The notes beneath the pieces were generated by a model. It worked only from the letters and a program-made list of their open reading frames with translations, searched no databases and had not been told where the DNA came from. Below, piece after piece: positions 1,591 through 62,966 of a DNA stretch of 64,000 nucleotides. Origin of the DNA: Actinomycetales bacterium (GTDB lineage Bacteria > Actinomycetota > Actinomycetes > Actinomycetales > Angustibacteraceae); the NCBI GenBank assembly GCA_038322575.1, contig JBBQGB010000008.1:3559-67558 (forward strand), given 5' to 3'. Each line of letters starts with the position of its first letter. Position 1 is the first letter of the stretch. The position numbers and the translations under genes are program-made.

Positions 1591-1683
1591 CCACGCGAAC
1601 CACGTCGTGGCCTCGGGTGGGCGGCGCAGTGGTGGGTTGCGTACCGCTGTGGGTCATACCAGCCTCAGCTCGCCGCCGGATGG

Positions 1684-1965: not shown

Positions 1966-2065
1966 GGTCGCCAGTCTCCTCTCTACTCCAGAGTAGTCGG
2001 CCGTTCCAGGCCCTGCCTGCCGAGCGTGGGCTGGCGCCCGGAGGGGCTCGCGTAAGGTCGTTCGG

Positions 2066-3365: not shown

Positions 3366-4250
3366 TCAGCCGGCTGCGGCGATGATGCAGCCGGCCAGGA
3401 TCCCGGCCGCGTAGACCAGCTCGGTGAGCCCGGTGTCCCGCAGTACCGGCACCAGTGCCGGCCCGGTCGTGCCACGGCGTACGACGCCCACGGCCCGCAT
3501 CCCGATGGGGGTGGCGGCCAAGCCGAGCAACGCCCACCAGGTCACGGTGGCGCCGACCCCGGCCAGCGTCACGGCGGAGGCGGCCAGCAGAGCGACGTAC
3601 AGCAGCCGTGAGCGACGGTCCCCGAGCACTACGGCGAGCGTGCGCTTGCCGACCGCCGTGTCGCTGGGGATGTCGCGCAGGTTGTTGGCGACCAGGATCG
3701 CGCAGGCCAGTGAGCCGATCGCGACGGCGGCGGCGAGCGCGGCCCACGACAGGCGCCCGGCCTGGGTGTACGTGGTGCCGAGCACCGCGACCAGACCGAA
3801 GAACACGAAGACGAACACCTCGCCGAGGCCGAGGTAGCCGTAAGGGTTCGAGCCCCCGGTGTAGTACCAGGCGGCGAGGATCGAGACGGCGCCGACGCCG
3901 AGCATCCACCACGTGTGCGACACGAGCACCAGGGCCAGCCCGGCGAGGGCGGCGACGGCGAAGGCGGCGAACGCGGCGAGCTTGACCGAGCGCGGGCTGG
4001 CCAGGCGCGAGCCGGTGAGCCGCAGTGGGCCGACCCGGTCGTCGTCGGTGCCGCGGATGCCGTCGGAGTAGTCGTTGGCGTAGTTGACCCCGACCTGCAG
4101 CGCGAGCGAGACGACCAGGGCCAGCAGCGCGCGGGGCAGGCTCGCGGCGCCGAGCGCTGCGGCGGCACCGGTGCCGGCTGCGACGGGGGCGACGGCTGCC
4201 GGCAGCGTCCGCGGACGGGCGCCCTCGATCCACTGCGCTGCGCTCGCCAT
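3366..4250 (-). CDS. menA: 1,4-dihydroxy-2-naphthoate polyprenyltransferase
   Basis: UbiA-family prenyltransferase with the motif [15 protein letters not shown], about 9 TM segments, and a men-gene neighbourhood. Confidence 0.9.
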
Positions 4251-4296
4251 GGCTCGATCCTGCCGTGTGCCGGGTGGGGTGGCCGCAGCGGCCCGG

Positions 4297-5481
4297 TCAG
4301 GCGCGGTCCACGAGCGCCGCGACGGCCGCCCGGTCGGGCTTGCCGGGGCCGCGCAGGGGAATGCGCTCGACCAGGACGAGCCGGCGCGGCGCAGCGGCCG
4401 ACCCGAGAGCTGCGGTCACGGCGGCTCGCAACCGTTGCAGCACAACGGGTTGCTGGCCGCGTGCCACCACCACCGCGACGACGGACTGGCCCCACTCGAT
4501 GTCCGGGACGCCGACGACGACGCACTCGCTGACCTCGCGCAGGCCGGCGACGACGGTTTCGACGGCGGCGGGAGAGACCTTCAGGCCCCCGGTGACGATG
4601 ACGTCGTCTGCGCGGCCTGTGACCCGCAACCGGCCGTCGACGAGCTCGCCCAGGTCGTCGGTGCGGAACCATCGGCGTCCGTCCCGCTCGACGAACGCGT
4701 CGGCGCCCGGCCGCAGCCGGTAGCCGCGTGCGACCACGGGCCCGCCGAGCAGGATCCGCCCGTCGTCCAGGCCGACCTCGACGCCGTCCAGGGGCGTGCC
4801 GTCGTACACGCACCCGCCGCAGGTCTCGCTCATGCCGTACGTCGTGACGACGCGGACGCCGGCCGTGCCGGCACGAGCGAGCAGCGTCGGCGAGGTGGCG
4901 GCGGCGCCGACCAGCACCGCGTCGTACGACGACAGTGCGGCCACGGCGGCGGGCCCGGCGTCCAGCAGCCGCAGCAGCTGGGTCGGCACGAGCGCGGTGT
5001 AGCGGCGACCGTCGGCACGTCGCAGCAGACCGTCGGTGGCGCGCACGAAGGCGTCGGTCGAGAAGCCGGCCGCCAGGTCGACCACCGACGGGACGGTGCC
5101 CGCGAGGCTGGAGCGCACCAGCACCTGGACGCCAGCGACGTGGTGCGGTGCCAGCGCGAGCAGCCACGTGCCGGGGCCGCCCAGCCGGGCGTGCGTCGCG
5201 GTGGCGGACGCCGTCAGCGCAGACGCCTGCAGCAGCGCACCCTTCGGCGTGCCCGTCGACCCGGACGTCGCGAGTACCAGTGCGGTCGGGTCGGCGTCGT
5301 CGTCCTCACCCGGGCGCAGCGCGGTGGCGGGCTCGAGGGCGTCCAGGGTGTGCGCCCCCGAGGCGTCGGGCGGCAGGGGCAGCAGCACGTCGCCGCTGCC
5401 GTCCAGGGCCGACGCCACAGCCGCCACGGCCTCGGCGACGGGCAGGCCGCCCAGGGCGACGGCGCGCAGGATGCGCGGCAC
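4297..5481 (-). CDS. menE: o-succinylbenzoate-CoA ligase
   Basis: Short (394 aa) adenylate-forming enzyme with the AMP-binding motif [12 protein letters not shown] and a C-terminal GPGKPDR. It lies adjacent to menA. Confidence 0.85.
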
Positions 5482-5485
5482 GACC

Positions 5486-5881
5486 TCAGGCCGAGCCCGC
5501 GGCCGGGCCCTCGACGTTGGTGGTGGGGGCGCCGCGACCGCAGCGGACGATGACCGCCCGGGCGGGTGCGTCGTCGGGGTTGGTCTCGCGGTGGACCGCG
5601 TGCGCCGGCACGTGCAGGAAGTCGCCGGCCGAGGCGGTGACGACCTCGCGCCCGCCCGGGCCGGACTCCAGGCGCATCCGCCCGCGAACGACGTACAGCG
5701 TCGTCTCGTGCTCGCCGTGGTGGTGCCAGCCGGACGCGGCGTGCGGCTCGGTGTCGACCACGCCGCTCCACATGCCCTCGACCTCCAGCCCGACGCGCCT
5801 GGTCATGCCGGGGGTGGGGTCTGCCGGGCGCAGGTCACCCGCCGGGACGTGGGCGCAGGGGCGCGCTGCCGGATCGGTCAC
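5486..5881 (-). CDS. cupin domain protein
   Basis: Cupin metal-binding motifs GWHHHGEHETTLYVVRG and GDFLHVPAHAVH. The start is uncertain: GTG at 5881 or ATG at 5806. Confidence 0.65.
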   Translation of the reverse strand: MTDPAARPCAHVPAGDLRPADPTPGMTRRVGLEVEGMWSGVVDTEPHAASGWHHHGEHETTLYVVRGRMRLESGPGGREVVTASAGDFLHVPAHAVHRETNPDDAPARAVIVRCGRGAPTTNVEGPAAGSA

Positions 5882-6068
5882 GGGTGCAGTCTGGCCCAGG
5901 TGCCGCTCATGAAGCCAGACAGTGCCCAGCGAACGTCGGTCCCGCCAGGTCGCAGCTTCTGGTTCTCTCCTGCGGCGCACCGCCCAGACGGGGCGTGCCT
6001 GAGGACCTGCTGCCTAGCCCACTGTGGGGCAGCCCCGCTCCGCGGGGGACTGCCCCACGTCACGCGGC

Positions 6069-6779
6069 TCAGCGGTACTCGGGGTTGTGCCAGCCGAAGC
6101 GCTCGCCGGCGTTCCACTCCGACCGCTGGTTGCCGTGACCAGGCACGCCCCCTGCCGTCTTGAGCATGCGCGCGAGGTGCATGAGGTTCCAGGTCATGAA
6201 GGTCGTGTTGCGGTTGGTGAACTCGTTCTCGGGCCCCCCGCTGCCGGCATCGAGGTACGACGGGCCGGGCCCGGCCTCGCCGATCCACCCGGCGTCGGCA
6301 TTGGGCGGGATCGTGTAGCCCACGTGCTGCAGGCTGTACAGGATGTTCTGTGCGCAGTGCTTGATGCCGTCCTCGTTGCCCGTGATCAGGCACCCGGCCA
6401 CACGTCCGTAGAACAGGTACTGACCCTTGTCGTTGAGCAGACCGCTGAGGGCGTAGATCCGCTCGATCACGCGCTTGGTGACGCTGGAGTTGTCACCGAG
6501 CCAGATCGGGCCGGCGACCACCAGGATGTCGCTGGCCAGGAGGCCGGGGTACAGGTCCGGCCACGCGTCGGACTCCCACCCGTGCTCGCGCATGTCCGGG
6601 TAGACCCCGGTGGCGATGTCGTGGTCGACCGCCCGCACCAGGTCGACCTCGACACCGTGTTCGCGCATGATCGCCGCGCTGGCGTCCACGAGGCCAGCCG
6701 TGTGGCTCGGCTCCGGACTCTTCTTGAGGGTGCAGTTGACGTAGGTGGCGCGCAGGCCGCTGAAGTCCCAGTCGTTCAT
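6069..6779 (-). CDS. flavodoxin-like NAD(P)H-dependent FMN reductase family protein
   Basis: The internal ATG at 6779 gives a 236-aa protein, MNDWDFSGLRATYVNCTLKKSP...ILVVAGPIWLGDNSS...GCLITGNEDG, typical of the flavodoxin/FMN_red fold. The upstream 135 codons of the ORF overlap a gene remnant. Confidence 0.75.
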   Translation of the reverse strand: MNDWDFSGLRATYVNCTLKKSPEPSHTAGLVDASAAIMREHGVEVDLVRAVDHDIATGVYPDMREHGWESDAWPDLYPGLLASDILVVAGPIWLGDNSSVTKRVIERIYALSGLLNDKGQYLFYGRVAGCLITGNEDGIKHCAQNILYSLQHVGYTIPPNADAGWIGEAGPGPSYLDAGSGGPENEFTNRNTTFMTWNLMHLARMLKTAGGVPGHGNQRSEWNAGERFGWHNPEYR

Positions 6780-6847
6780 GGAGCCACTGTCTCTGCTGCA
6801 CTCGACTTCGTTACAAACCGCCACCCTATTCTTCCCAACCGCCTCAC

Positions 6848-7075
6848 GTAGAGCATCGTCGGCAGGCCCCGCGACAGCAGCAGGACCAGCATGGACACCG
6901 GCAGCAGCTGCTCTGGCGAGTGCACCAGCCCGGAGCCGTCCGGGCGCACGCCGCTCACGACGAAGAACCCCGGGATGAGCAAGCCGTACCCGATGGCGTC
7001 GAGCTTGGTGCCGAAGCGGGGGTGGGTAAAGGAGTCGCGATCGAGCGCCGCGACCGCTTGCAAGCGGATCTCCGC
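6848..7075 (-). pseudogene. remnant of a cation:proton antiporter gene (internal fragment only)
   Basis: The fragment AEIRLQAVAALDRDSFTHPRFGTKLDAIGYGLLIPGFFVVSG...LLPVSMLVLLLSRGLPTMLY aligns with AQIRVRL...ALDPDSDERHPQFRVKLDGLGFGFLIPIFFVTSG...LLRVPLYLVLLLVVRGLPALAY of the intact antiporter at 12329..13528. There is no N- or C-terminal remainder. Confidence 0.45.
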
Positions 7076-7262
7076 GGTCCTGTCCGGCAGCCGTATCAGC
7101 AGCCCGCCCCCGGTACATGCTGTGCGAGGTGATGGCGGCCGTGACACCTGGGCGCGTGCGACACGTCGCATCCCCGGAGTCCACCGCTCGACGATGTGGC
7201 GGAAGGACAACTCGTCGCGCGACCGCAGGGCCGCGACCCGGCGGGCGTCGTTCACCCGCCCT

Positions 7263-9194
7263 TCACAGGAGGGCGGCGTCCTGCTGAACACAGAGCAGGG
7301 CGGGCCCGGGTGAGCTGAACAGGTCTCGGACGGCGTCGTCGAGCTGGTCGCGGTGGTCGACGCGGATCCCGGTGGCGCCGCAGAGCTCGGCGTAGGCCGC
7401 CCAGTCCGGGTTGGACAGCGACGTGTGCCACACGGGGTAGTCGGCGGCGACCTGCTCCTTCTCGATCTTGCCCAACGCGTCGTTGTTGAGCAGCACGTGC
7501 TTGATCGCCATGCCGTACTTCACCGCCGTGGTGAGCTCCATCGCGTACTGGCCGAAGCCCCCGTCACCGGTCACGGCGACGACCGGCCGGGAGGGGTCGG
7601 CGGCCCAGGCGCCCATGGCCGCCGGGTAGCCGAACCCGATGGAGCCGAGGTACCCGGACATCAGCACCGGTTGTCCCCGCGACTCCAGGTAACGGCCGAG
7701 GGAGTAGGCGTGGTTGCCGACGTCGACACAGACGACCGCGTCGAGGGGAAGCTGTTGGGACAGCGCCGCGAAGACGGCGGCGGCCGAGACCCCGCGGCCT
7801 CGGTCGTCCTCGGTGCGCCGGCGTTTCTCGGCTCGCCACAAGGCCCAGCGGGCCGCCACGTCGTCTCGCTGGTCGACGGTACGCGCGTGAGCGGTCGCCG
7901 CGTCGAGCGCTCGGACGCCGAGGACGGCATCGGCCAGGATCGGCACGGTGACGGCGTGGAACCGGCCGATGGCCGCGGGCTCGTCGTCGATCTGGATGAT
8001 GGGCTTGTACGACGCGATCCCGGTGTGGTTGGAGAACGAGGCCCCCACCACCACGAGCAGGTCGGACTCGTTCATCAGCCAGCTGGCCACCGGCGTCCCG
8101 CTGCGGCCGAGGACCCCGGCGCCCAGCGGGTGGTCGTCGGGCACGAGGCCCTTGGCCTTGAAGGTGGTCAGCACAGGGGCACCGAGGCGCTCGGCGAGCG
8201 CGGTCAGCTCCGGTGCGCAGACCCGGGCACCGTGCCCGACCACGAACACCGGACGGGTGGCCGCCACGAGCAGGTCGGCCGCCGCTGCGACCGCGTCGGC
8301 GTCCGGACCGATCCGCCGGGTCGTGAACCGCCCCAGCGGCGTGGCGGGGTCGGCGTCCGACGGCTGGTCCTGCACCTCGTCGGGGATCACGAGGTGGGCC
8401 ACGCCGCGTCGGTCCACCGCGTGCTTGACGGCGAGCGCCGCGAGCTCGGCGTGATCGCTGCCGGCGGCCACCGTCGTGGTCGACACGGCGACGTCACGGA
8501 AGACGGCCGACAGGTCGAGGTCCTGGAAGGCCCCGCGCCCGATGAGGGGCGAGGGCACCTGACCGGAGACGGCGATCACGGGGGACTGGTCGAGCTTGGC
8601 GTCGTACAGGCCGGTGAGCAGGTTGGTCGAGCCCGGGCCGGCGATGGCGAAGCAGGCCGCCGGTCGTCCGGTGAGCTTGCCGTAGGCGCTGGCGGCGAAC
8701 GCCGCGGCGCCCTCGTGGCGGATCCCGATGAAGCGCAGCTCACCGCGCTCCTCGGCCCGCCGCATCGCGTCGGCGAACCCCAGGTTGGAGTGACCCACCA
8801 TCCCGAACACCGTGTCGACGCCGTGGGCGATCAGCGTCTCCACCAGGACGTCGGAGACGGAGCGGTGAGGTGTCGTCCGCGCGGGCAGGTTGACGTAGAC
8901 GCCGTCCGCGCGCTCGTCGACGTCGTAGGCGAGCACCGCGTCGGAGAAGCCCTCGGGGGGCTGTCCGGTCGCGGGGTCGTAGTCGTACCCGTGCCAGGGG
9001 CAGCGGAGCCATCCGTTCTCGATGGACCCCTCGCCGACCGGACCACCCTGGTGGGGGCACCGGTTCTCCAGTGCGCCGAGCCGGCCCCCGCACCGGGTGA
9101 GCGCGACCGATCGGCCGTCCAGCACGGTGCTGGTGACGCGTCCGTCCGCTGGGACGTCGGTCGGCAGGACCTGGTGCCATCCGTGCTCGCTCAT
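7263..9194 (-). CDS. Rieske [2Fe-2S] domain fused to a thiamine-diphosphate enzyme (pyruvate oxidase / acetolactate synthase-like)
   Basis: The N-terminal ~100 aa carry CPHQGGP-x-CPWHGY (Rieske CxH...CxxH). They are followed by TPP_N (GMVGHSNLGFADA, GPGSTNL), a middle domain, and a TPP-binding C-domain (TGDGGFGQ...NN). Confidence 0.85.
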   Translation of the reverse strand: MSEHGWHQVLPTDVPADGRVTSTVLDGRSVALTRCGGRLGALENRCPHQGGPVGEGSIENGWLRCPWHGYDYDPATGQPPEGFSDAVLAYDVDERADGVYVNLPARTTPHRSVSDVLVETLIAHGVDTVFGMVGHSNLGFADAMRRAEERGELRFIGIRHEGAAAFAASAYGKLTGRPAACFAIAGPGSTNLLTGLYDAKLDQSPVIAVSGQVPSPLIGRGAFQDLDLSAVFRDVAVSTTTVAAGSDHAELAALAVKHAVDRRGVAHLVIPDEVQDQPSDADPATPLGRFTTRRIGPDADAVAAAADLLVAATRPVFVVGHGARVCAPELTALAERLGAPVLTTFKAKGLVPDDHPLGAGVLGRSGTPVASWLMNESDLLVVVGASFSNHTGIASYKPIIQIDDEPAAIGRFHAVTVPILADAVLGVRALDAATAHARTVDQRDDVAARWALWRAEKRRRTEDDRGRGVSAAAVFAALSQQLPLDAVVCVDVGNHAYSLGRYLESRGQPVLMSGYLGSIGFGYPAAMGAWAADPSRPVVAVTGDGGFGQYAMELTTAVKYGMAIKHVLLNNDALGKIEKEQVAADYPVWHTSLSNPDWAAYAELCGATGIRVDHRDQLDDAVRDLFSSPGPALLCVQQDAALL

Positions 9195-9267
9195 CTGTAA
9201 CGCCTCTCCGCGTCGCGGGACTGTGCAGCTACTGTCCCTGCGCGTCGCGAACTGTTACGGAGCCGCC

Positions 9268-9882
9268 ATGTCCGACCTGGAGTCCACCCGGACGTCGTTG
9301 CACGCGATCGCCGAGCTGCTGCTCGCTGGGCCGCAGTACGTCCGGAGCAGGTCGATCCGGCTGCGCCCATCGCCCGGCGGTTTCGCGACGGTCGCACCGC
9401 CCGACGTGCGCGTCTTGGGCACCGACCTCGTGCTGGCCGACCGGTCGATCCCGCTCGACGGTCGCCGCGTGGCGGACGTCGCGAGCGAGGCCGGTCTGAC
9501 CCCCCGGCGCCTGAACGAGGTGTACGCCGATGGCTCTGGCCTCGGCGAGGACCACGTGCTGCGCATCGAGGCCGACGCTGCCCGGCAGATCGCTGACGGC
9601 TTCCAGCGCGGCACCCAGGCTCTGGCGGTCTTCGCGCCAGGGACCGAGCAGACGCTCTGGCCGGAGCACTTCGACCTGGCCATCACCCTCGACGAGGTCA
9701 ACTACGGGATCTCGCCCGGCGACACCCACCTCGCCGTGCCGTACGCCTACGTGGGCCCCCCGTCGCCCCGCGAGCTCGACGGGACGTTCTGGAACGCTCC
9801 CTTCGGGGCCGCCCTCCCGCTCACGCAGGTCGACGACCTGGAGGCGTTCTTCTCCGAGGGCAGGAGCAGGGCAGCCGGGTAG
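9268..9882 (+). CDS. hypothetical protein
   Basis: An ATG at 9268 within ORF 9022..9882 gives 204 aa with coding-like composition. It is divergent from the Rieske-TPP gene. I recognise no motif. Confidence 0.5.
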   Translation: MSDLESTRTSLHAIAELLLAGPQYVRSRSIRLRPSPGGFATVAPPDVRVLGTDLVLADRSIPLDGRRVADVASEAGLTPRRLNEVYADGSGLGEDHVLRIEADAARQIADGFQRGTQALAVFAPGTEQTLWPEHFDLAITLDEVNYGISPGDTHLAVPYAYVGPPSPRELDGTFWNAPFGAALPLTQVDDLEAFFSEGRSRAAG

Positions 9883-10034
9883 ACCGCCACGCGAGCCCCG
9901 GACCGCTGACCGCTGACGCGGGTCAGACGGGCTCGGACAAGGTCACGGCGAAGTCGTCCGCGGGGTCAGTGCTGCCAACCCAGAAACTGCTTGGACCGGT
10001 GGCCGCCGACGTCGTGCCGATGGCGTGGTCTGGC

Positions 10035-11009
10035 TCACCAGGTCGGCATGGCGCCCCGCGACGTGCCCCTACCGGCGACCGTGACGGAGGAGTCCCCGGC
10101 GGGGTCGGTCCACGTCGTCTCGACCTCGAACCCGGCGGCGACCAGCTCGGTGCGCAGGCCCTCGACGCGGAACTTCGCGCTGGTCTCGGTGAGGATCTGC
10201 TCGCCGGCGCCGATCCGCCACTCGAGCCCGAGCAGCGGCACGACGAGGTCACGGCGGGCTCGCAGCCGCATCTCGATGCGGTCGTGCTCGGTGTCGTAGA
10301 CCGCGACGTGGTCGAAGTCGTCGGGGTCCAGGGACCGGGGGTTGATCTCGAGCTCACGGGCGAGCACCCGCAGGACGTTCTTGTTGAAGGCGGCGGTGAC
10401 TCCCGCGCTGTCGTCGTAGGCCCGAAGGAGCCGGTCGGTGTCCTTGACGAGGTCGGCACCGAGCAGGAACAGGTCACCGGGCGCCGTTGCGCGATGGACC
10501 CGTCGCAGGAACGCCGCCCGCGGGCCGGGGGTGAGGTTGCCGATCGTGGAGCCGAGGAACGCGACCAGGCGGTCGCCGTCCGTGCCGGGCAGTGGGAACA
10601 GCTCGTCCTCGAAGTCGGCGACGATTCCGCGGACCTCCATGAGAGGGAAGTCCCGGTTGATGCGGACGGCGGCATCGCGGATCGGCCCTTCGCTCACGTC
10701 CAGCGGTACGAACAGGGCCGGCTGCAGCGCCTCCAGCAGCAGCTTGGTCTTGCGTGAGTAGCCCGCGCCGAGCTCGACGAGGGTCCCGACGTGGGGCAGG
10801 TCCCGAGCGTGCTCGGCGAGGATCGCGGTCTCGGTCCGGGTCGGGTAGTACTCCGGCAGGTCGGTGATCTCGTCGAAGAGCTGGCTGCCCTTCTCGTCGT
10901 AGAACCACTTCGGCGGGATCTCGACCGGTGACTTGGTCAGTCCTTCGCGCACGTCGGCAGCCAGCCGCCCGGGGTCCGGCGCGCGCCGGACCTCGACCGA
11001 CCAGCTCAT
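10035..11009 (-). CDS. egtD: L-histidine N-alpha-methyltransferase (ergothioneine biosynthesis)
   Basis: Matches EgtD family signatures: [52 protein letters not shown] and a WTDPAGD tail. The ATG at 11009 overlaps the egtB stop (ATGA). Confidence 0.9.
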
Positions 11010-12219
11010 CGGGCCAGCCTGAGTCCCGAGAACGCCCAGCGCGAGCCCGCCGGGAAGAAGTTGCGGTAGCTGATCCGTTCGTGGCCCGGCGGTGTCGCGC
11101 ACGACGCGCCCCGCAGGACGTGCTGGTCGTTCATGAACTTGCCGTTGTACTCGCCCACCGCGCCAGGGACCGGCCGGAAGCCGGGGTAGGGCAGGTACTG
11201 CGACGCGGTCCACTCCCACACGTCGCCGACCATGTGGTCGCCGGCGAGCCCGGGGTGCAGCCGCGCCAGGTCGAGCAGCTGCCCGCGCAGCGGCTCGCAG
11301 TCCGCCGCAGCGACCTCCCACTCGAACTCGGTCGGCAGCCGGCCCAGCGGGCATAGGCGTCGGCCTCGAAGAACGACACGTGCACGACCGGCTCACCGAG
11401 CCGCAGCTCCTTCACACCGGCGGTCGTGAACGTCATCCAGGAGCCGTCGACGTCCCACCAGTAGTCAGGGCTGCGCCAGCCCTCACGCTGCAGGGCGTAC
11501 CAGCCGTCCGACAGCCACAGGTCCGGACGGCGGTAGCCACCGTCGGCCATGAACGCCAGCCAGTCCTCGACCGTCACGGCCCTGCTGGCGATCTCGAAGT
11601 CCTCCAGGAAGACCCGATGGCGCGGCCCCTCGTTGTCGTACGAGAAGCCCCCGCCGGCCCCGATCTGGTGCAGCCCCCCGGCCACGCCCCGGAACCGCTG
11701 CGGGGTGGACGGTGGGTTGTCCTCGGCGTCGCGCGTGATGTACGCCGGACCCAGCGCATGACGCGAGAGCAGGTGCTTGATGTCCATCACGAGCAGCTCC
11801 TGATGCTGCTGCTCGTGGTTGATGCCCAGCTCGACCAGCGCCAGCACCGCGTCGGCGGGGCCCATCGCAAGCAGCGCCTCGACCCCGTTGTCGACGTGCC
11901 GGCGGTAGCGACCGACCTCCTCGACCCCGGGACGGGTCACCAGCCCACGCTCGGGTCGCGGGTGCCGAGGTCCGACCGCCTCGTAGTAGCTGTTGAACAA
12001 GTACCGGAAGCTCGCGTCGTAGGGCTCGTAGTCCCGCGAACCCAGGACGAACTCCTCGTAGAACCACGTCGTGTGCGCCCGGTGCCACTTGGTCGGGGAG
12101 GTGTCCGGCATCGACTGAGCGGTCTGGTCCTCCGGCGACAGCGGGGCGGCCAGCGCCTCGGTGAGGGCACGCGACCGGGTGAAGCGGTCAGTGAGTGTGG
12201 GCGTGCGCACGAGCGGCAT
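11006..12219 (-). pseudogene. egtB: hercynine oxygenase / sulfoxide synthase EgtB, interrupted by one frameshift near 11338-11343
   Basis: The N-terminal DinB-like part (SPTKWHRAHTTWFYEEF) and the FGE-sulfatase part up to [12 protein letters not shown] are in one frame. The continuation [13 protein letters not shown]...[19 protein letters not shown]...[18 protein letters not shown] is in another frame (ORF 11006..11233). Confidence 0.8.
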
Positions 12220-38230: not shown

Positions 38231-39487
38231 CTAGCTCGAATCGACCTCGACGATGAGCAGGGCGACGTCGTCGTCGGCCGCACCGGCGTCCAGGCGCGAC
38301 AGCAGGACGTCGGCCAGCTCGTCCGGGTGCCCGGCGTCGGCGCCGGTCGCCACCTGACGCAGCTGCTCGAGGCGTGCGTCCAGCGACGTGCCGCGCACCT
38401 CGACCAGACCGTCGGTGTAGAGCACGAGCACGTCGCCGGGCACCAGCCGGTGCTCGTGGTCGTGCCGGTCGCTGCCCGGGTCGACCCCCAGCATCAGGTC
38501 GACGCTGGTCTCCAGGAAGTCCGCCCGGTCGCCGCGCACCAGCAGCGGCGGCAGGTGGCCCGCGTTGGTCCACTGCAGCCGCCACGTGCCGTCCCCGTCG
38601 GGGTGCAGCCGCGCGACCACGCAGGTGCCGGTGGCGTCCAGGGCCAGGGTGGCCGACGTCCGCTCCAGGCGGGTCACGACGCCGCTGGGCGACTCGGCGC
38701 GGTCGACGGCGTGGGCCCGGACGGTGTGCCGCAGCGCCGCCATCCGGGCCGCGGCGCTGACGTCGTGGCCGCTGACGTCGCCGATGACCACCACCAGGTC
38801 GCCCTCGACCGCGAAGGCGTCGTACCAGTCGCCCCCGACGTCCAGACCACGGGTGGCGGGGGAGTAGCGCGCAGCCAGGTGCAGCCCGGGCACCGCGGGC
38901 AGCGGCGGCAGCAGGCTGGTCTGCAGGGCGGTCGCCACGGCGCGCTGCACCTCGAGCAGCCGGGCCGCCTCGAGGGCCACACCCAGGTGTGCGGCGACGT
39001 CGGCCAGGGCCGTGACGTCGTCGGGGCGGAACGTGGTGCGGGTGCCCAGGGTCAGCACGCCGACCGCCGTGTCGCGGGCGGCCAGGCGGATGAGCAGCAC
39101 CTCGTGCGCCCCGTACGACAGCGCCATCGCCGCCTGGGCGGCGCGGTGCGGGTCGCCGGAGGCGGCCACCGCGGCCAGCTCGGGCGCCCGCAGGTGCATC
39201 GTCGCGTCGGGGGACCGCAGCAGGGTGGGCAGCAGACCCTGCGACCCGGCCGAGGACCGGCGCGGTGACCGCTGGCCGGGTGACCGCGACCCCATCGACA
39301 CGGGCAGCGCGAGTGCGCCGTCGGCGCCGTACGCCGCGACGCGCACGACGAGGTCGGGGTCGTCCAACCGGTCGGCGATGACCCAGTCCGCCACCGCGAG
39401 CAGCACCCGGGCGCTGCGATCCAGGATGGTGGCGCTGTCGGTGGCCGACGACGTGGCGCGCACGACGTCGGTGAGCAGGTCGGGCAT
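38231..39487 (-). CDS. GAF-domain PP2C-family (SpoIIE-type) protein serine/threonine phosphatase
   Basis: N-terminal GAF-like ~180 aa. The C-terminal PP2C motifs are GGDWYDAF, VVIGDVSGHD and LVLYTDGLVE. Confidence 0.8.
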   Translation of the reverse strand: MPDLLTDVVRATSSATDSATILDRSARVLLAVADWVIADRLDDPDLVVRVAAYGADGALALPVSMGSRSPGQRSPRRSSAGSQGLLPTLLRSPDATMHLRAPELAAVAASGDPHRAAQAAMALSYGAHEVLLIRLAARDTAVGVLTLGTRTTFRPDDVTALADVAAHLGVALEAARLLEVQRAVATALQTSLLPPLPAVPGLHLAARYSPATRGLDVGGDWYDAFAVEGDLVVVIGDVSGHDVSAAARMAALRHTVRAHAVDRAESPSGVVTRLERTSATLALDATGTCVVARLHPDGDGTWRLQWTNAGHLPPLLVRGDRADFLETSVDLMLGVDPGSDRHDHEHRLVPGDVLVLYTDGLVEVRGTSLDARLEQLRQVATGADAGHPDELADVLLSRLDAGAADDDVALLIVEVDSS

Positions 39488-39491
39488 CTGC

Positions 39492-40202
39492 TCAGGCCCT
39501 CAGGTGGTGGTCGAAGAACGCGAGCATGCGCGCCCAGGCGTCGTCAGCCGCGACCGGGTCGTGGCCGAGGCCGGCAACCCGCTCGAGCGACGCGAACGGA
39601 CCGGTGCGGTGCTGGTTGAGGAACGAGTGGCCGGCGTCGGGGTACTCCTTGACGTCGTGCTCGACCCCCAGCTCGGTCAGCACGGACTCGAGCCGGCCGG
39701 CCACCCCGCGCAGCATCGGGTCGCGCCGTCCGTAGCTCGCGACGACCGGGCAGGCGCCGGCCAGGACGGTGCGCGCCTCACGCGGCAGCGGCCCGTAGCT
39801 CGGCGCCGCTGCGTCGAAGCCGCGGGCGGCCAGCAGCAGCGCGAACCCCCCGCCCATGCAGAACCCGAGCACCCCCACCGGCCCGGCGCAGTCCGGCCGG
39901 CCGGTCAGCCAGTCGCGGACGGCCAGGACGTCGTCGACGGCCGCCCCGTGCCCGCTGGTCAGGGCGCCGAACGTCGCCCGCAGGCACCGCAGGGCGCCGC
40001 CGGCGCTGAACAGGTCGGGAGCGACGGCGAGGAACCCCGCGCCCGCGAGCCGGTCGTTCTGCCGGCGGATGTCGTCGGTGAGGCCCAGCAGCTCGTGCAG
40101 GACGACGACCCCCGGCCACGGCCCCCCGCCGCCGGGTGGCACGGAAAGGTGCGCGCGCAGCAGGGGCGTGCTCACCCCACCGGGCACCAGGACGTCGACC
40201 AT
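39492..40202 (-). CDS. dienelactone hydrolase family protein
   Basis: Has VVVLHELLGL, the nucleophile region GVLGFCMGGGFAL, and a late D...H (YPDAGHSF). Its end lies 4 nt from the phosphatase start. Confidence 0.8.
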   Translation of the reverse strand: MVDVLVPGGVSTPLLRAHLSVPPGGGGPWPGVVVLHELLGLTDDIRRQNDRLAGAGFLAVAPDLFSAGGALRCLRATFGALTSGHGAAVDDVLAVRDWLTGRPDCAGPVGVLGFCMGGGFALLLAARGFDAAAPSYGPLPREARTVLAGACPVVASYGRRDPMLRGVAGRLESVLTELGVEHDVKEYPDAGHSFLNQHRTGPFASLERVAGLGHDPVAADDAWARMLAFFDHHLRA

Positions 40203-40267
40203 GAGCTGATCCTGTCAATATCACCGGCCGTGGCGCCAGCGTGACTCGGTGCCACCACCGGCTCGGG

Positions 40268-41344
40268 CTAGCCCGACCGGCGGCGGTCCAGCCCCCAGAC
40301 GACGGCGGCGTGAGGGAACGTCAGGGCCAGCAGTACGCCGACCTCGGCCTGCAGCCCGGCCAGGTCGCGGGCCCACCACAGGCCCAGCACCGCGAGCAGC
40401 GCCACGGCGGCCGGCAGGGCCGCGGCCCGGGCCAGGACGCGACCGGCGGTCGACCACGCGGGGGTGGCCCCCTCGTCGGAGCGGTCGGAGCGGTCGGAGC
40501 GGTCGGAGCGGTCGGAGCGGTCGGAGCGGTCGGACCGCGCGGCCCCGCGGGCCAGGTCGAGCAGCCGGCCGGTGTGGCGCAGCGAGTGCCACAGGCCGAA
40601 GTAGACGCCGAAGGCAGCCAGCGGCGGCGCCAGGGTGAAGGTCGCGGCGAGCAGGGCCAGCTCGGCCGCCTCCAGGTGCCGGCGGGCGCGCACCAGGACG
40701 ACCAGGGCCACGACCACGCTGACGGCGAGGAGCACCAGACCAGGCACCCGGGCCGCCTGGGCCGTCTCGGCGAGCCGCGGTGACAGGCCGGCCAGCAGGA
40801 CGCCGATGTCGCGGGGCCGGGCCCACAGCAGCAGCCCCACGACGACCGCGCCGTGCGCGAGGGCCAGCGACCAGTCCTCGCGGGAGGTGGGCACCCGGCG
40901 TCCGGCCCGCTCGGCGGAGGTCACGACCTCGCCGCGGCCGAAGTGGACGGCGGACAGCACCAGGAAGGCCGCCAGCGCCGGGGTCGGGGCGAGGAGGAAG
41001 GCGCCGAGCGCGAGGGCGGCGACGGCGGCGTACGCACCGGCGAACAGCGCCAGCCGCGTCGTGCTCGGGCGGCGCGAGCCGCCGCGCGGGTCGCCGGCAC
41101 CCCACCACCACGGGACGAGGTGGTCGACGGCGCCGTGCGGGACGCCCAGGGCGACACCCACCAGGGCGAGGGGCAGGGCCAGGGACGAGGTCAGGGCGGG
41201 CGCAGCGACGGCGAGCAGCAGGAGCGAGCCCATCGCCGCCACCGGGACCCAGGTGAGCCAGGGCAGGGCCTGCATGGCAGGGCCCGAACGCGCACCGACC
41301 GGCCACCGCGAGGTCGCGGTGGCCGGTCGGTGCAGCAGGGACAT
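40268..41344 (-). CDS. blh: Brp/Blh-family beta-carotene 15,15'-dioxygenase (retinal synthase)
   Basis: Polytopic membrane protein with the four conserved His contexts GVPHGAVD, SAVHFG, FGLWHSLRH and TFPHAAV. It lies 16 nt downstream of the rhodopsin gene. The start could alternatively be the internal ATG at 41275. Confidence 0.85.
   Translation of the reverse strand: MSLLHRPATATSRWPVGARSGPAMQALPWLTWVPVAAMGSLLLLAVAAPALTSSLALPLALVGVALGVPHGAVDHLVPWWWGAGDPRGGSRRPSTTRLALFAGAYAAVAALALGAFLLAPTPALAAFLVLSAVHFGRGEVVTSAERAGRRVPTSREDWSLALAHGAVVVGLLLWARPRDIGVLLAGLSPRLAETAQAARVPGLVLLAVSVVVALVVLVRARRHLEAAELALLAATFTLAPPLAAFGVYFGLWHSLRHTGRLLDLARGAARSDRSDRSDRSDRSDRSDRSDEGATPAWSTAGRVLARAAALPAAVALLAVLGLWWARDLAGLQAEVGVLLALTFPHAAVVWGLDRRRSG
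40475..40537 (-). repeat. in-frame 9-bp tandem repeat (GTCGGAGCG x6 plus one imperfect unit) encoding (RSD)n inside blh
   Basis: Direct reading of 40475-40537. The translated loop is ARSDRSDRSDRSDRSDRSDRSDEG, between the FGLWHSLRH helix and the last TM segments. Confidence 0.95.
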
Positions 41345-41360
41345 GAACGTCAGCCGATCC

Positions 41361-42209
41361 TCAGACCCGAGCGCCGCTGGGCGCCGTGGCGTCCGGCACG
41401 AGCTCGTCGTCGGAGTACGTCGGGTCCTCGAGACCGCTCTTGACGCGGGCGATCTTGTAGATGGCCAGGCCGTACGCCGCCTTGGCGAAGATGTCGGCGA
41501 GGCTGTAGCCGCCCTGGCGCAGGACGAACCCGCTGGCGCCGCCGAAGAAGTCGCCGCCGATCATCGGGAACAGGTAGGCGATGGGGTAGACGCCCCACAG
41601 GCCGACCAGCGCGAGGCGGAGCATCTTGATCGTGTGCTGCACCTCGACGGGCTGGCGCACCAGCGAGCGCGACAGCTCGACGAACAGCACGTAGAGCAGG
41701 TAGATGAAGGGGATCGTCGACAGGAAGCCCCACAGCGCGCGGGAGCCGACGGTGGTGGCGATCTCACCCGGGTAGCCGAGCAGGATCATCAGGGCCGAGG
41801 CCGGCACCAGCTTGTAGAGCAGCCCGCGCTGGGCGACGCGGCCCAGGGCCATGACGGCGACCGTCTCGACGAGCAGCAGCGGCACGGTCAGCAGCCAGTC
41901 GACGTACCGGTAGGCCTCGTTGAACTCGATGTTCGAGAGGTTGTGCGGCGCGCTGACCGAGCTGCCCGGGGGGTAGCTCTCGTTGAAGTTGCTGAAGATC
42001 CGGAAGTAGTGGTACGCCGCGATGCCACAGACGATCGCCGAGACGACCAGTGCGTTGCGGTAGCGCGGCGCGACGCGCCCGCGCGAGAGGAGCAGGAACA
42101 GCGCCGTGAAGAGCATCGACGCGATGACGAGTGAGAAGAGGTTGTAGACGGTGGCGAACTGACCCGCGGAGAGCGAGGGGATGTTGACGCCTGATACGTC
42201 GGTGAGCAT
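41361..42209 (-). CDS. microbial (type-1) rhodopsin, proteorhodopsin/xanthorhodopsin-clade outward proton pump type (DTE motif)
   Basis: Seven TM segments. Helix C is RYVDWLLTVPLLLVE (D/T/E) and helix G is SLADIFAKAAYG (Asp-x3-Lys Schiff base). Helix B has the His in AAYHYF. The start is taken at ATG 42209 (GGGAG 6 nt upstream); the ORF-track start at 42233 adds 8 aa. Confidence 0.9.
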   Translation of the reverse strand: MLTDVSGVNIPSLSAGQFATVYNLFSLVIASMLFTALFLLLSRGRVAPRYRNALVVSAIVCGIAAYHYFRIFSNFNESYPPGSSVSAPHNLSNIEFNEAYRYVDWLLTVPLLLVETVAVMALGRVAQRGLLYKLVPASALMILLGYPGEIATTVGSRALWGFLSTIPFIYLLYVLFVELSRSLVRQPVEVQHTIKMLRLALVGLWGVYPIAYLFPMIGGDFFGGASGFVLRQGGYSLADIFAKAAYGLAIYKIARVKSGLEDPTYSDDELVPDATAPSGARV

Positions 42210-42296
42210 GACGACTCCCAGGTGATGCGGCACCTATGCCGCCTTCTTCGTGACCACTCACCGAGGGCTCGGCGAGGCAGGGCCAGTTCTACGCCC

Positions 42297-42335
42297 GGTG
42301 AAGATCCAAGAGCAACTCGTGCAGGTTTGGTGAAG
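42297..42335 (-). promoter_or_regulatory. two GGTGAAG (CTTCACC on the coding strand) direct repeats 32 bp apart in the regulator-rhodopsin spacer (candidate operator/promoter region)
   Basis: Copies are read at 42297-42303 and 42329-42335. They are located 90-125 nt upstream of the rhodopsin start. No consensus was tested. Confidence 0.25.
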
Positions 42336-42343
42336 CGCTTTGG

Positions 42344-43261
42344 TCACGGCACCGCCGTCGCCGAGGCGCGGCGCGCCCACGCGAGGGCGAGGCGGTCGAC
42401 CGCGTCGGCCAGGCTCACGCACAGCGTCGCCGGCCCGCCGTCGACGCCGGACCACCCCGGCCCACCCACCAGCAGCATGAGCCGGCGGTGGGCTCGGGCG
42501 ACGGCCGTCAGCCCCGGTGCCGCAGCACCGTCGGGCGAGCTGAGCCACACCAGGACGCCGGCTGCCCGGGTGCGGCGCGCCGCGCTGGCCAGGGACGTCA
42601 TCGGCGTCCGCGCCCCCAGCAGCCGGGCCGGCACCCCCTGCTCGGCCAGGGCCGACCGCACGGCGTGCAGCGCGAGGACGTGCTCCTCGTGCGGGCCACC
42701 CGCGAGCAAGACGGGGTTCTCTCGTGCAGGTTCGGGAAGACGCGCGACGTGACGGACGAAGGCGGTGGTCAGCGCCTGGGTGAGCATGTGCTCGACCTCG
42801 ATGCCCTCGCCGGTGCGCTGCCAGTGCTCACCGGCGGCGACGAGCACCGGGCGCAGCGCCAGGTCCCACGCCGTCAACGTCCCCTGCTCGCCGAGCAGGT
42901 CCAGGACGGTGTCCTCGACGGCCATCTCGTCCAGGCGCGCGGCCGCCCGGGCCAGGCCCCGGGCCGCTCTGCCGGCGCCCGGCACCGCGAGCACCGCGCC
43001 GCCGGGCCCGCCGCGGCGCGGGGGGCCCGGGGGACCTGGCGCGACGCCGTTGACGAGGGCGGCCGCCGCGGCCGGGCTGGTGCCCGACACCACGGCCTCG
43101 TGCACCTGCTGGAGCCGCTGGAGGTCCTCGGCGGTGAAGCGCCGGTGGCCACCGGGCGAGCGGGCCGAGGCGGTCAGCCCGTAGCGCCGGCCCCACATGC
43201 GCACTGTCGAGGCGGACACACCCAGCCGGGCGGCCACCTCACCCACCGGCAGCAGGCTCAC
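42344..43261 (-). CDS. MerR-family regulator with C-terminal cobalamin-binding domain (CarH/LitR-like candidate B12 photoreceptor)
   Basis: The N-terminal MerR HTH is VGEVAARLGVSASTVRMWGRRYGL...GGHRRFTAEDL. Downstream are W147-x9-E157-H158 (WQRTGEGIEVEH) and PHEEH194VLAL, followed by a Rossmann-like LLGARTP...GVLVWLS...LMLLVGGPG. Confidence 0.7.
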   Translation of the reverse strand: MSLLPVGEVAARLGVSASTVRMWGRRYGLTASARSPGGHRRFTAEDLQRLQQVHEAVVSGTSPAAAAALVNGVAPGPPGPPRRGGPGGAVLAVPGAGRAARGLARAAARLDEMAVEDTVLDLLGEQGTLTAWDLALRPVLVAAGEHWQRTGEGIEVEHMLTQALTTAFVRHVARLPEPARENPVLLAGGPHEEHVLALHAVRSALAEQGVPARLLGARTPMTSLASAARRTRAAGVLVWLSSPDGAAAPGLTAVARAHRRLMLLVGGPGWSGVDGGPATLCVSLADAVDRLALAWARRASATAVP

Positions 43262-43272
43262 GAGGGCTCGTC

Positions 43273-44544
43273 TCAGCGCCGGGCGAGGGCGTCACGCATC
43301 GGCACCAGCTTCGCGTCGCTCTCGGCGAGCTCGGCCTCGGGTGCCGACCCGGCGACGATCCCGCACCCGGCGAACAGCCGCAGCCGCCCGGCGTCCCGGT
43401 CGACCTGGGCGCAGCGCAGGGCGATGCCCCACTCGCCGTCACCGCGACCGTCGATCCACCCCACCGGCCCCGAGTACCGGCCGCGGTCCATGCCCTCGAG
43501 CTCGCGGATGGCCCGCAGGGCGACGGGTGTGGGCGTTCCGCAGACGGCCGCCGTCGGGTGCAGGGCGGCGGCCAGGCCGAGCGAGCTGGCGCCGTCCGCG
43601 AGGACACCGGCGACGTCGGTGGCCAGGTGCATGACGTTGGCCAGGTGCAGCACGAACGGCGACTCGGGGACGTTCATCGACGAGCAGTGCGGTGCCAGGG
43701 CCTCGGCGAGGGACCGGACGGCGTACTCGTGCTCCTCGAGGTCCTTGCTGCTGCGCGCGAGCGACCCCGCGAGCACCAGGTCGTGGTCGTCGTCGCCGGT
43801 GCGCCGGATGGTGCCGGCCAGCACCCGCGAGTGCACCAGCCCGCGCTCGAGGCGCACCAGCAGCTCGGGGGTGGCGCCGACCAGGCCGTCGACGGCAAAG
43901 GTCCAGCACCCGGGGTAGCGCTCGGCCAGCCCGGCCAACAGCCAGCGCGGGTCGACGGCGCACTCGGTGGTCGCCAGCAGGTCACGTGCCAGGACGACCT
44001 TGTCGACCGCCCCGGTGCCGATGCGTGCCACGGCGGCCGCGACCACCTGCTCCCACTGTGGTCCGGTCATCGCACCGTCGGCGTAGGCCACCTCACCGGG
44101 GGCGAGCGGCTCGTGGGGACGCAGCCGGGGCGCGGCGGCCAGGGAGGCCTCGGGGGCGATGGTCGTCACCCACCACCGACCGGCCCGGTGGCCGACGACG
44201 ACCTCGGGCACCACGAGCGCGCCCCCCTCGGGCGAGCGGTCGTCGAAGGAGAACGACCCGAACGCGACCGGCCCGCTGCCGGGCAGGCCGACGTCGTCGC
44301 GCACCACGGTGCGGGCGAGCAGCGCCCGCCACCACTGCTCGGCGTCGGCGAACTGCGACCCGCCCGCCGCGGTGAAGCGGGCGGTCTGGCCCCACCCGAC
44401 CAGACCCTCGCCGCGGCGCACCCACGACAGCACCGGCGTGTCCGGCAGCAGGGCCAGCAGGGGGCCGGGGTCGGCGATCTCGCTGGTCCGCACGACCAGC
44501 CCCAGCACGGGGTCGCCGTCGAGCGACGCGGTGAGGATCGACAC
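43273..44544 (-). CDS. menF: isochorismate synthase
   Basis: Chorismate-binding domain: [64 protein letters not shown]. The start is taken at GTG 44544. Confidence 0.85.
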
Positions 44545-61953: not shown

Positions 61954-62966
61954 CCTCCGGTGCGCTGGTGGCGCCGGCGGACGACGCCGTCGCGCAGCTC
62001 CTGGACGAGGGGCTGGAGCGGGTCGAGGCCGAGCTGCGCGAGGCGACCAAGCACGCCGACGCGTTCATCGACGGGGCCAGCACCCACCTGGTCGCCGCCG
62101 GCGGCAAGCGGCTGCGTCCGCTGCTCACCCTGCTGGCCGGCCAGCTCGGGCCCCGCGGTGGCGCGGACGGTGCGGTGCCGGCGTCCGGCGACGTCGTCAA
62201 GGCCGCGGTGGTCGTCGAGCTGACCCACCTCGCCTCGCTCTACCACGACGACGTCATGGACGAGGCGGTGCTGCGCCGCGGGGTCGACAGCGCCAACACA
62301 CGGTACGGCAACACGGTCGCGATCCTCACCGGCGACCTGCTGTTCAGCCGTGCCTCGCAGGTCGTCGCCGACCTCGGCACCGACGCCGTGCGGATCCAGG
62401 CGCAGACCTTCGAGCGGCTGTGCGCCGGCCAGATCGCCGAGACCGTGGGGCCGGTCGAGGGTCGCGACGAGGTCGCCCACTACCTGCAGGTGCTGGCCGA
62501 CAAGACCGGGTCGCTGATCGCCACGGCCGGCCTGTTCGGAGCGCGCTTCGGCGGCGCCGACGACGCCACCGTCGACGTCCTGCGTCAGTACGGCGAGCGG
62601 CTCGGTGTGGCCTTCCAGCTGGCCGACGACCTGCTCGACCTGTCGTCGCAGGCCAGCGACCTGGGCAAGACGCCGGGCACCGACCTGCGCGAAGGGGTGC
62701 CGACCCTCCCGGTGCTGCTGGCGCGTCGCTCGACCGACCCGTCCGATGCCCGGTTGCTCGCCCTCCTGGGCGGTGACCTCAGTGACGACGCCGCTCACGC
62801 CGAGGCGCTCACGCTGCTGCAGGCCCACCCTGCCCTGCACGAGGCCACGCTCGAGACCCGCCGCTGGGCGGACGAGGCGCGCGACGTGCTCGCCCCGCTG
62901 CCGCCCGGCCCGGTCAAGGACGCCCTCGTCGCGCTGGCCCAGGGCGTCGTCGACCGCACCACCTGA
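61950..62966 (+). CDS. trans-polyprenyl diphosphate synthase (menaquinone side-chain; heptaprenyl/GrcC1-like)
   Basis: Has the first Asp-rich motif LYHDDVMDE and the second FQLADDLLD, plus GKRLRP. The GTG overlaps the nuoN stop (GTGA). Confidence 0.85.
   Translation: MTSGALVAPADDAVAQLLDEGLERVEAELREATKHADAFIDGASTHLVAAGGKRLRPLLTLLAGQLGPRGGADGAVPASGDVVKAAVVVELTHLASLYHDDVMDEAVLRRGVDSANTRYGNTVAILTGDLLFSRASQVVADLGTDAVRIQAQTFERLCAGQIAETVGPVEGRDEVAHYLQVLADKTGSLIATAGLFGARFGGADDATVDVLRQYGERLGVAFQLADDLLDLSSQASDLGKTPGTDLREGVPTLPVLLARRSTDPSDARLLALLGGDLSDDAAHAEALTLLQAHPALHEATLETRRWADEARDVLAPLPPGPVKDALVALAQGVVDRTT

Follow-up and report, generated by a model that had tools for sequence, protein, structure and literature searches.

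A CarH/LitR-family regulator next to an actinobacterial rhodopsin gene: a candidate B12-based light switch for rhodopsin expression

Little is known about how non-phototrophic bacteria time their production of rhodopsin, and light-induced rhodopsin expression has been seen in several groups with the sensor left unidentified. The 64-kb stretch of an Actinomycetales bacterium genome analysed here (assembly GCA_038322575.1, contig JBBQGB010000008.1; GC content ~70-77%; called the window below) contains three consecutive open reading frames (ORFs) on the minus strand that encode a MerR-family regulator, a rhodopsin and the dioxygenase Blh (Table 1). An earlier note on this DNA had read them as a vitamin B12-binding light sensor of the CarH/LitR family, the light-driven pump and its chromophore synthase, and all three ORFs are found on the strand and at the positions that it gave. 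The question raised by the locus is whether the regulator is such a photoreceptor and whether it controls its neighbour. We consider it somewhat probable (roughly 60%) that a B12-based CarH/LitR photoreceptor controls the adjacent rhodopsin(-blh) promoter and that, bound to adenosylcobalamin (AdoCbl), it acts as a repressor in the dark.

Table 1. Features of the regulator–rhodopsin–blh locus, in window coordinates
Feature	Position	Strand	Details
CarH/LitR-family regulator, 305 aa, GTG start	42344..43261	-	Assigned from domain, motif, alignment and fold evidence
Regulator, N-terminal parts		-	MerR winged helix-turn-helix (wHTH) 6-70; recognition helix RMWGRRY 21-27; linker and first-helix block 84-112
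Regulator, C-terminal parts		-	Four-helix bundle with W147-x9-E157-H158; Rossmann B12 module E192-x-H194-x2-A197...W239...G266-G267
Candidate operator, 14-bp inverted repeat AACCTGCACGAGTT (consensus AACTTGCACAAGTT)	42314..42327	-	Starts 16 nt past the regulator stop; overlaps the first -35-like bases
Putative rhodopsin promoter	42286..42315	-	-35-like TTGCTC 42315..42310, 18-nt spacer, -10-like TAGAAC 42291..42286
Predicted 5' leader, ~70 nt	42210..42279	-	Hairpin 1 42276..42257; hairpin 2 42242..42227 (GCGGCA-TAGG-TGCCGC); Shine-Dalgarno 42219..42215
Xanthorhodopsin-family DTE(W) rhodopsin, 282 aa	41361..42209	-	H67, D104, T108, E115, G145 (GYPGE), W205, D239, K243
Brp/Blh beta-carotene 15,15'-dioxygenase, 358 aa	40268..41344	-	PF15461, TIGR03753
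Perfect 9-nt tandem repeat GTCGGAGCG (+ strand), 6.7 copies	40475..40534	inside blh (-)	Encodes an (SDR)n insertion, residue 271 onward

The regulator and its cobalamin pocket

The regulator has the domain architecture of CarH. Its N-terminal residues 6-70 match MerR_1 (PF13411, E 5.8e-13), and the related Pfam family PF00376 is matched with E 6.4e-09; this winged helix aligns to the DNA-binding domain of Thermus thermophilus CarH (TtCarH, also named LitR), an AdoCbl-dependent light-sensing repressor of carotenoid genes. Residues 101-168 match B12-binding_2 (PF02607) with 25.7 bits, over the gathering cut-off of 23. Among sequences in the PDB, TtCarH is the top match of the regulator (phmmer E 1e-18; E 1e-26 with a 26-sequence profile), followed in second rank by the MerR-B12 protein of Chloracidobacterium. 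The C-terminal half thus scores as a cobalamin-binding domain, as had been proposed, with B12-binding_2 above its threshold and TtCarH ranking first in both sequence and fold.

The residues that line the cobalamin pocket are conserved. The motif W-x9-E-H and, about 36 residues later, the motif E-E-H are both present as the earlier note had numbered them (W147-x9-E157-H158 and E192-E193-H194, with H158 and H194 36 residues apart). In unbiased phmmer and profile alignments, W147, E157, H158 and H194 fall on W131, E141, H142 and H177 of the AdoCbl pocket of TtCarH, and the four residues are invariant in 26 orthologues (59-84% identity) and in all 19 loci of the clade. The lower axial histidine stands in the element E192-E-H194-V-L-A197, in which H194, aligned to H177 of TtCarH, never varies. 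The salt bridge R176-D201 of the TtCarH dimer corresponds to a charge-swapped E193-R218 pair, a form that is common among CarH homologues (PMC9304148). Two glycines at 266-267 are present with the spacing expected of the B12 motif. From this pocket we infer that the regulator binds AdoCbl and responds to light.

The predicted fold agrees with the alignments. The AlphaFold2 (AF2) model of the regulator has a predicted local distance difference test score (pLDDT) of 88.7 and a predicted template modelling score (pTM) of 0.81. When this model was compared with the PDB by Foldseek, ranks 1-39 were all TtCarH entries (E ~1e-12), and the cobalamin-binding domain matched TtCarH with a target-normalised TM-score of ~0.80 and a root-mean-square deviation of ~2.9 Å. 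The structural comparison that had been suggested therefore gives an overall CarH-like fold. Neither of the computational outcomes that the earlier note had named as a refutation, a C-terminal domain that fails to score or motif residues that miss the CarH pocket, was obtained.

Two other parts of the protein are well conserved in the clade. The recognition helix R21-M-W-G-R-R-Y27 follows a clade consensus RMWGxRY, in which the Glu of the CarH sequence RxWERRY is replaced by an invariant Gly. Residues 84-112 (~42928..43012), which form the linker and the first helix, read GGPGGxVLAVPGxxxxxRGLARAAxRLDE and are invariant in the rhodopsin-linked clade; the block is partly retained in other high-GC homologues and absent from low-GC homologues. 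Its GGPGG part is modelled with low confidence (pLDDT <50 at residues 80-88).

Recurrence of the regulator–rhodopsin pair and its palindrome

The regulator was used as a query against one-per-species genomes, metagenomes and a protein-cluster index. Wherever a homologue was at least 55% identical and downstream sequence was present, the gene directly downstream encoded a rhodopsin (loci L001, L002, L009, L010, L011/L012, L013/L014 and L015-L022; L010 is Geodermatophilus sp. DSM 44513, L011/L012 Dermatophilaceae Sec6.4 and L013/L014 Nakamurella sp. GG22). At least five actinobacterial lineages have the pairing, in unrelated surroundings, for example menF and a dienelactone hydrolase gene in the window, a hemN-like gene and a two-component system in Geodermatophilus, and LigD and SDR genes in Dermatophilaceae. 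Because the flanking genes change between lineages, the conserved unit is the regulator plus the rhodopsin. Since nearly all of the orthologous loci examined show the adjacency, the arrangement is far beyond chance. The comparison across actinobacterial genomes that the earlier note had proposed thus shows the pairing to be kept across genera with differing flanks. Its three-gene unit needs to be narrowed: regulator and rhodopsin are invariant, and the third gene is blh in some lineages but a SnoaL_3/DUF4440-like gene in Nakamurella-type loci.

The pairing is also seen from the rhodopsin side. When rhodopsin homologues were picked solely by the length of their contigs, a MerR-B12 gene lay directly upstream in three out of four (L097 Motilibacteraceae, L099, L100 Dermatophilaceae Soc4.6). 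More distant relatives of the regulator keep other company: in about 75 homologues of at most 46% identity, no rhodopsin was present in the flank retrieved, which reached 4-6 kb at most, depending on the length of the contig. Those sampled are arranged as groEL, a small ORF, the regulator and guaB, others lie beside crtI or crtE (L007, L023), and one belongs to the Streptomyces cluster of an extracytoplasmic function (ECF) sigma factor gene, litR and crt genes. In a neighbour-joining tree, computed with no bootstrap, all rhodopsin-linked regulators fall into one clade apart from the guaB-linked group. This suggests that they are a dedicated subfamily, which by its gene context would target the adjacent rhodopsin promoter.

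An operator-like palindrome occupies a fixed position in front of the rhodopsin gene. The consensus AACTTGCACAAGTT is found at no more than three mismatches, and always at the same position, in each of the 18 related regions upstream of rhodopsin that were examined, and it also occurs at L006; the chance expectation is 0.36 per 64 kb. Across loci the palindrome lies 85-112 nt ahead of the rhodopsin start codon. Its arms AACTTG and CAAGTT are nearly invariant, and variation is free at the central dinucleotide and at every flanking position, so that the site has the form of a classic phylogenetic footprint. The right arm leads into a -35-like TTGnnn, followed after ~18 nt by a -10-like (c)GTAnAnC, and this geometry recurs across loci. 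In the window, transcription is predicted to start near 42279, which would put the centre of the palindrome at about -42. The palindrome holds one TnnACA element, which is the kind of element contacted by CarH domains (PMC9304148). A second match at 937..950, with three mismatches, is taken as chance because it lies inside a cytochrome-c-assembly (PF01578) gene.

A related palindrome, AAGTTGTTCAAGTA, is often found 80-135 nt upstream of the distant guaB-linked homologues, which have no rhodopsin, and the motif is enriched in their loci (39 matches, against 8 ± 2.8 in shuffles). Therefore, the motif tracks the regulator family rather than rhodopsin. This recurrence is the best available in-silico argument that the palindrome may be the cognate site of the family, and we infer from it that the regulator binds the palindrome in the window.

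Two loci depart from the pattern. In L098, the fourth rhodopsin-side locus, there is no adjacent regulator, which is presumably encoded elsewhere in the genome, and the palindrome AACCTGTGCAAGTT is retained at 3389..3402; downstream, an operon of rhodopsin, blh, crtE and crtI (3501..7864) apparently places the full retinal pathway under the same operator. L006, a Jatrophihabitans metagenome-assembled genome (MAG), encodes a regulator of the clade (54% identity) and no rhodopsin. Its regulator is flanked by palindrome copies at 5617..5630 and 6959..6972, and downstream come ~1.1 kb with no recognisable genes, then a tRNA (8141..8213), a cobalamin riboswitch (8330..8529) and cobD/cobQ (8610..11062). 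This locus may have lost its rhodopsin and left the operator behind.

The adjacency of the two genes might have no direct regulatory meaning: the palindrome might belong to another factor or simply to the promoter, and the MerR protein might control other genes. The palindrome and rhodopsin with no adjacent regulator in L098, and the regulator with no rhodopsin in L006, would fit this explanation. However, in at least five lineages the pair has outlasted repeated changes of neighbourhood, the clade of the regulator is restricted to the rhodopsin context, a similar palindrome stands beside distant homologues that have no rhodopsin, and the L006 regulator is still flanked by two copies of it. 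We therefore regard a meaningless adjacency as less likely, indeed as very improbable.

Light, cobalamin and the sign of control

Several features weigh against an AdoCbl-dependent dark repressor, some in the protein and some in the promoter region. The Rossmann part of the B12 module (residues 190-269) matches B12-binding (PF02310) with 24.3 bits, under the gathering cut-off of 32.1. The CarH equivalog model NF052513 (TransRegCarH) is the best NCBIfam match, at 74.4 bits against a trusted cut-off of 400, so the regulator is a relative within the family rather than an equivalog of the CarH that was modelled. After the motif Trp, TtCarH has a His (H132), a ligand of the bis-His light state, that is Gln here, and the equivalents of the tetramer-interface glycines of TtCarH are unconserved in the clade. 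The classic B12 motif of CarH is D/ExHx2G/P-x41-SxT/V-x22-27-GG (PMC9304148); the position after the axial His element, classically G or P, varies among A, P and T in the clade (A197 here), and the x41 position is occupied by W239-L-S, with W239 aligned to S222 of TtCarH. Known CarH operators consist of three or four tandem 11-bp direct repeats (nnnnTnnACAn) that overlap the promoter (PMC9304148). Tandem repeats of this type were sought and rejected, because conservation does not extend beyond a core of 14-16 bp, which is a single inverted repeat; on both sides, the positions in 11-bp phase are uninformative. Finally, the centring of the palindrome near -42 and the frequent lack of a final T in the -10-like element would both suit an activator site as well.

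The deviations in the pocket raise the possibility that the regulator senses cobalamin status or another signal instead of light, its altered Rossmann pocket (W239, A197) binding another corrinoid or none. The CarA paralogues of Myxococcus show that the CarH fold can turn B12-independent (PMC9304148), the match to PF02310 is sub-threshold, and in L006, whose regulator belongs to the clade, a cobalamin riboswitch and cobD/cobQ are nearby. However, an intact Wx9EH motif marks AdoCbl-dependent CarH as opposed to B12-independent CarA (PMC9304148), and here this discriminator is intact and invariant, as is the axial His. W239 is conserved across the whole actinobacterial family, crt-linked members of the LitR type included, and is therefore a lineage trait rather than decay or a degeneration specific to the clade. 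The target, moreover, is a light-driven pump. A sensor of B12 status is thus less likely as well, and we consider it unlikely. The dependence of the promoter on light and on B12 is predicted from homology.

The features of the promoter region bear on the sign of control. The same sensor could work in the opposite sense, as a light-dependent activator that sits on the palindrome at about -42 in a class-II-like manner and brings RNA polymerase to an otherwise weak promoter. The palindrome runs exactly up to the -35-like hexamer, and it offers one site of dimer size instead of the extended footprint of a repressor. In about half of the loci, the -10-like element does not end in the canonical T (TAGAAC, TACAAC, TATACC), and a strict sigma-70 scan of 39900..43700 found no promoter. 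In Streptomyces coelicolor, LitR is reportedly required for light induction of litS. On the other hand, every CarH protein characterised biochemically and structurally (Thermus, Bacillus, Myxococcus, Cystobacter) represses in the dark (PMC9304148), the overlap between operator and -35 element is shared with those systems, and no activator-specific feature has been identified. Activation is a serious alternative, although a rather doubtful one, and dark repression is the most likely sign on the present analysis.

If the regulator is a dark repressor, the switch may work as follows. In the dark, the AdoCbl-bound regulator would oligomerise, at least to a dimer, and its winged-helix domains would sit on AACTTG-N2-CAAGTT, which abuts or overlaps the -35 element. 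The occupied palindrome would block RNA polymerase, including polymerase reading through from the regulator gene; a scan of 39900..43700 found no terminator between the regulator and the rhodopsin promoter, and the lone terminator-like match was hairpin 2 on the wrong strand. AdoCbl absorbs from UV to green. Light in this range would photolyse the Co-C bond, the oligomer would lose its affinity for DNA, and the rhodopsin-blh transcript would then be made. Because light would release the promoter, pump and chromophore would be produced only when light is available. The absorption maxima of Geodermatophilaceae rhodopsins lie at 513-559 nm (bioRxiv 10.1101/2024.05.16.594530), and the range absorbed by AdoCbl overlaps them.

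The surrounding locus and its place among known systems

The rhodopsin matches Bac_rhodopsin (PF01036) with E 5.6e-36. It has the DTE motif D104/T108/E115 at the positions of bacteriorhodopsin residues 85/89/96 and the Schiff-base lysine K243, and W205 makes it a rhodopsin of the DTEW type. The earlier view that it is a DTE-motif rhodopsin of the proton-pump type stands, with the pumping function predicted from these residues. Its closest relatives in the PDB are 9HFK, Gloeobacter rhodopsin (6NWD) and xanthorhodopsin (3DDL). It shares the DTE motif and the Schiff-base Lys with xanthorhodopsin, Gloeobacter rhodopsin and the actinobacterial DTEW rhodopsins, and its GYPGE segment is identical to that of Gloeobacter rhodopsin. 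Homologues of the DTEW and DTEF types from Geodermatophilus pump protons outward (bioRxiv 10.1101/2024.05.16.594530). The start codon ATG 42209 is preceded, at a distance of six bases, by the Shine-Dalgarno sequence GGGAG, and it is preferred over that of a longer GTG ORF (42233) because the starts match in 16 orthologous loci. Of the two intergenic gaps given previously, the 16 nt between rhodopsin and blh hold, but the 110 nt between regulator and rhodopsin should be 134 nt by that note's own coordinates; the smaller figure presumes the GTG start, and ATG 42209 gives 134 nt.

The third ORF exceeds both curated cut-offs (142.8 bits against 28 for PF15461, with E 2e-41, and 157.8 bits against 95.25 for TIGR03753), so that its naming as Blh is borne out. 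His70, His134, His253 and His257 are present as candidate iron ligands. The true start of the protein may be M24 rather than M1. The Blh orthologue of L001 is ~17 residues shorter overall, which suggests copy-number variation of the (SDR)n repeat. Pairing of rhodopsin with blh is common in rhodopsin-bearing bacteria (PMC4732338). The SnoaL_3/DUF4440-like proteins that are encoded in the third position in Nakamurella-type loci have an NTF2 fold and 141-179 aa (L013 8094..8519, L014 5752..6240, L015 8086..8511, L016 8147..8686); in two loci the gene overlaps the rhodopsin stop. A sequence search of the PDB with this protein gave nothing significant. It might be a carotenoid- or retinal-handling partner.

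The predicted rhodopsin leaders share an order of two hairpins, which is seen in the window, L001, L002, L010-L022 and L097-L100. The core of hairpin 2, GCGGC-N4-6-GCCGC, ends ~10 nt ahead of the Shine-Dalgarno sequence and is often followed by AUCACC. The leader was considered as a known or new RNA element and rejected: it has no match in Rfam, and RNAalifold found no consensus on a MAFFT alignment. Single-sequence folding z-scores were mostly -0.1 to -1.3 and fell below -2 in only 4 of 13 leaders. Covariation in hairpin 2 was not significant, the core stem being invariant in sequence and only edge pairs varying.

Around the three genes, the window encodes menaquinone genes (menD-like, menF-like and ubiE/menG), a GAF-PP2C phosphatase, a dienelactone hydrolase and the nuo operon. 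In the window (43262..43272) and in L001, the regulator starts 11 nt past the stop of the menF-like isochorismate synthase gene. At most loci the regulator apparently has its own leaderless promoter, in which a -10-like CATGAT is followed after 6 nt by the start codon. This element is lacking in the window and in L001, and the window regulator is probably co-transcribed with menF. The phosphatase, of the SpoIIE type with a GAF domain (38231..39487, minus strand), is encoded two genes 3' of blh on the same strand, past the dienelactone hydrolase gene, and lies outside the conserved cassette in other lineages. No genes of the crtB/I/Y type, crtI included, were found in the 64-kb window, where the sole relevant match was a polyprenyl synthase homologue at 62088..62723. 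Nor did the window yield a cobalamin riboswitch or any cobalamin genes. To call the module self-contained was therefore an overstatement: with no crtEBIY-type or B12-synthesis genes linked to it in the window, β-carotene and AdoCbl must be supplied from elsewhere. A plasmid-borne cassette was also considered and rejected, since a search of PLSDB gave no close homologue (best match 39% identity).

Among characterised proteins, TtCarH (PDB 5C8D/5C8E/5C8F, 3WHP) is the nearest model. It shares with the regulator the MerR wHTH, the four-helix bundle with Wx9EH and the Rossmann B12 module with its axial His, as well as an operator that overlaps the -35 element and contains TnnACA, and a light-related target gene. 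However, identity is only ~25-30%. The regulator has Trp for the Ser of SxT/V, Gln for H132 and no conservation of the tetramer-interface Gly, and its recognition helix reads RMWGRRY where that of TtCarH reads RxWERRY. Where the operator of TtCarH has three tandem 11-bp direct repeats, the candidate operator here has one 14-bp inverted repeat, and the target of the regulator would be the co-directional downstream rhodopsin-blh pair instead of a divergent crt gene. The MerR-family B12-binding protein of Chloracidobacterium thermophilum (PDB 8JBS/8JBT) is likewise a full-length protein of the MerR and B12 photoreceptor type, and it aligns with residues 6-232 (E 1.8e-15) and has the same Wx9EH and His; it comes from another phylum and its identity to the window regulator is low.

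Streptomyces LitR, encoded between the ECF sigma factor gene litS and crt genes, is an actinobacterial MerR/B12 homologue of ~39% identity, which has in common with the regulator W239 and the GGPGG...RGLxRAA block of the high-GC family. Unlike the window regulator, LitR of S. atratus has an ECF sigma factor gene and genes of the carotenoid pathway (lycopene cyclase, desaturases) as neighbours, and the homologues in L007 and L023, which adjoin crtI, are in a similar setting. The rhodopsin-linked regulators, in contrast, form a separate clade and appear to act directly on the target promoter with no linked sigma factor. An exception is the Motilibacteraceae MAG L097, in which an ECF sigma factor gene and a gene for a 352-aa protein with no Pfam match stand divergently upstream of the regulator (1601..2131 and 559..1617, minus strand), a layout that recalls Streptomyces litS-litR. 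The guaB (IMPDH)-linked group, comprising L003, L004, L025, L041, L051, L062 and ~55 other metagenome loci at 29-40% identity, includes many low-GC, acI/Nanopelagicales-like members and retains Wx9EH, the axial His and W239.

A full-text search that largely did not reach subscription journals found no literature linking a CarH/LitR or B12-binding MerR protein to a rhodopsin gene. In Bacteroidota, a MerR-type gene has been reported ahead of crtI, not ahead of rhodopsin (PMC4732338), and a preprint on Geodermatophilaceae rhodopsins that includes strain DSM 44513 does not mention the regulator (bioRxiv 10.1101/2024.05.16.594530). What appears to be new here is a dedicated CarH/LitR subfamily in which the class of target (a light-energy pump) is new, the operator is built differently and the B12 motif is modified.

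A wider reading may be entertained, although only tentatively. In Actinomycetota of soil, rock and freshwater, rhodopsin phototrophy could be gated by a second, chemically unrelated photoreceptor, B12, through a compact and mobile regulator-operator-rhodopsin(-blh) cassette, with a non-canonical dimer acting, possibly as an activator, on a single palindrome at about -42 and the structured leader serving as a second layer of control. If so, light harvesting by these bacteria would depend on the supply of vitamin B12.

The locus offers a testable circuit for a broad set of Actinomycetota, with a defined sensor, a candidate 14-bp operator and a target, and cultured carriers are at hand in Geodermatophilus sp. 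DSM 44513 (CP135963), Nakamurella sp. GG22 and two Dermatophilaceae bacteria, Sec6.4 (CP144172) and Soc4.6. If the regulator works as proposed, the optogenetic toolbox would gain a CarH variant with a simple palindromic operator, the CarH/LitR regulon would extend from photoprotection by carotenoids to the capture of light energy, and the ecology of vitamin B12 would be linked to phototrophy. The recurrence of the pair together with its docking site suggests that one light sensor switches on another light-harvesting system.

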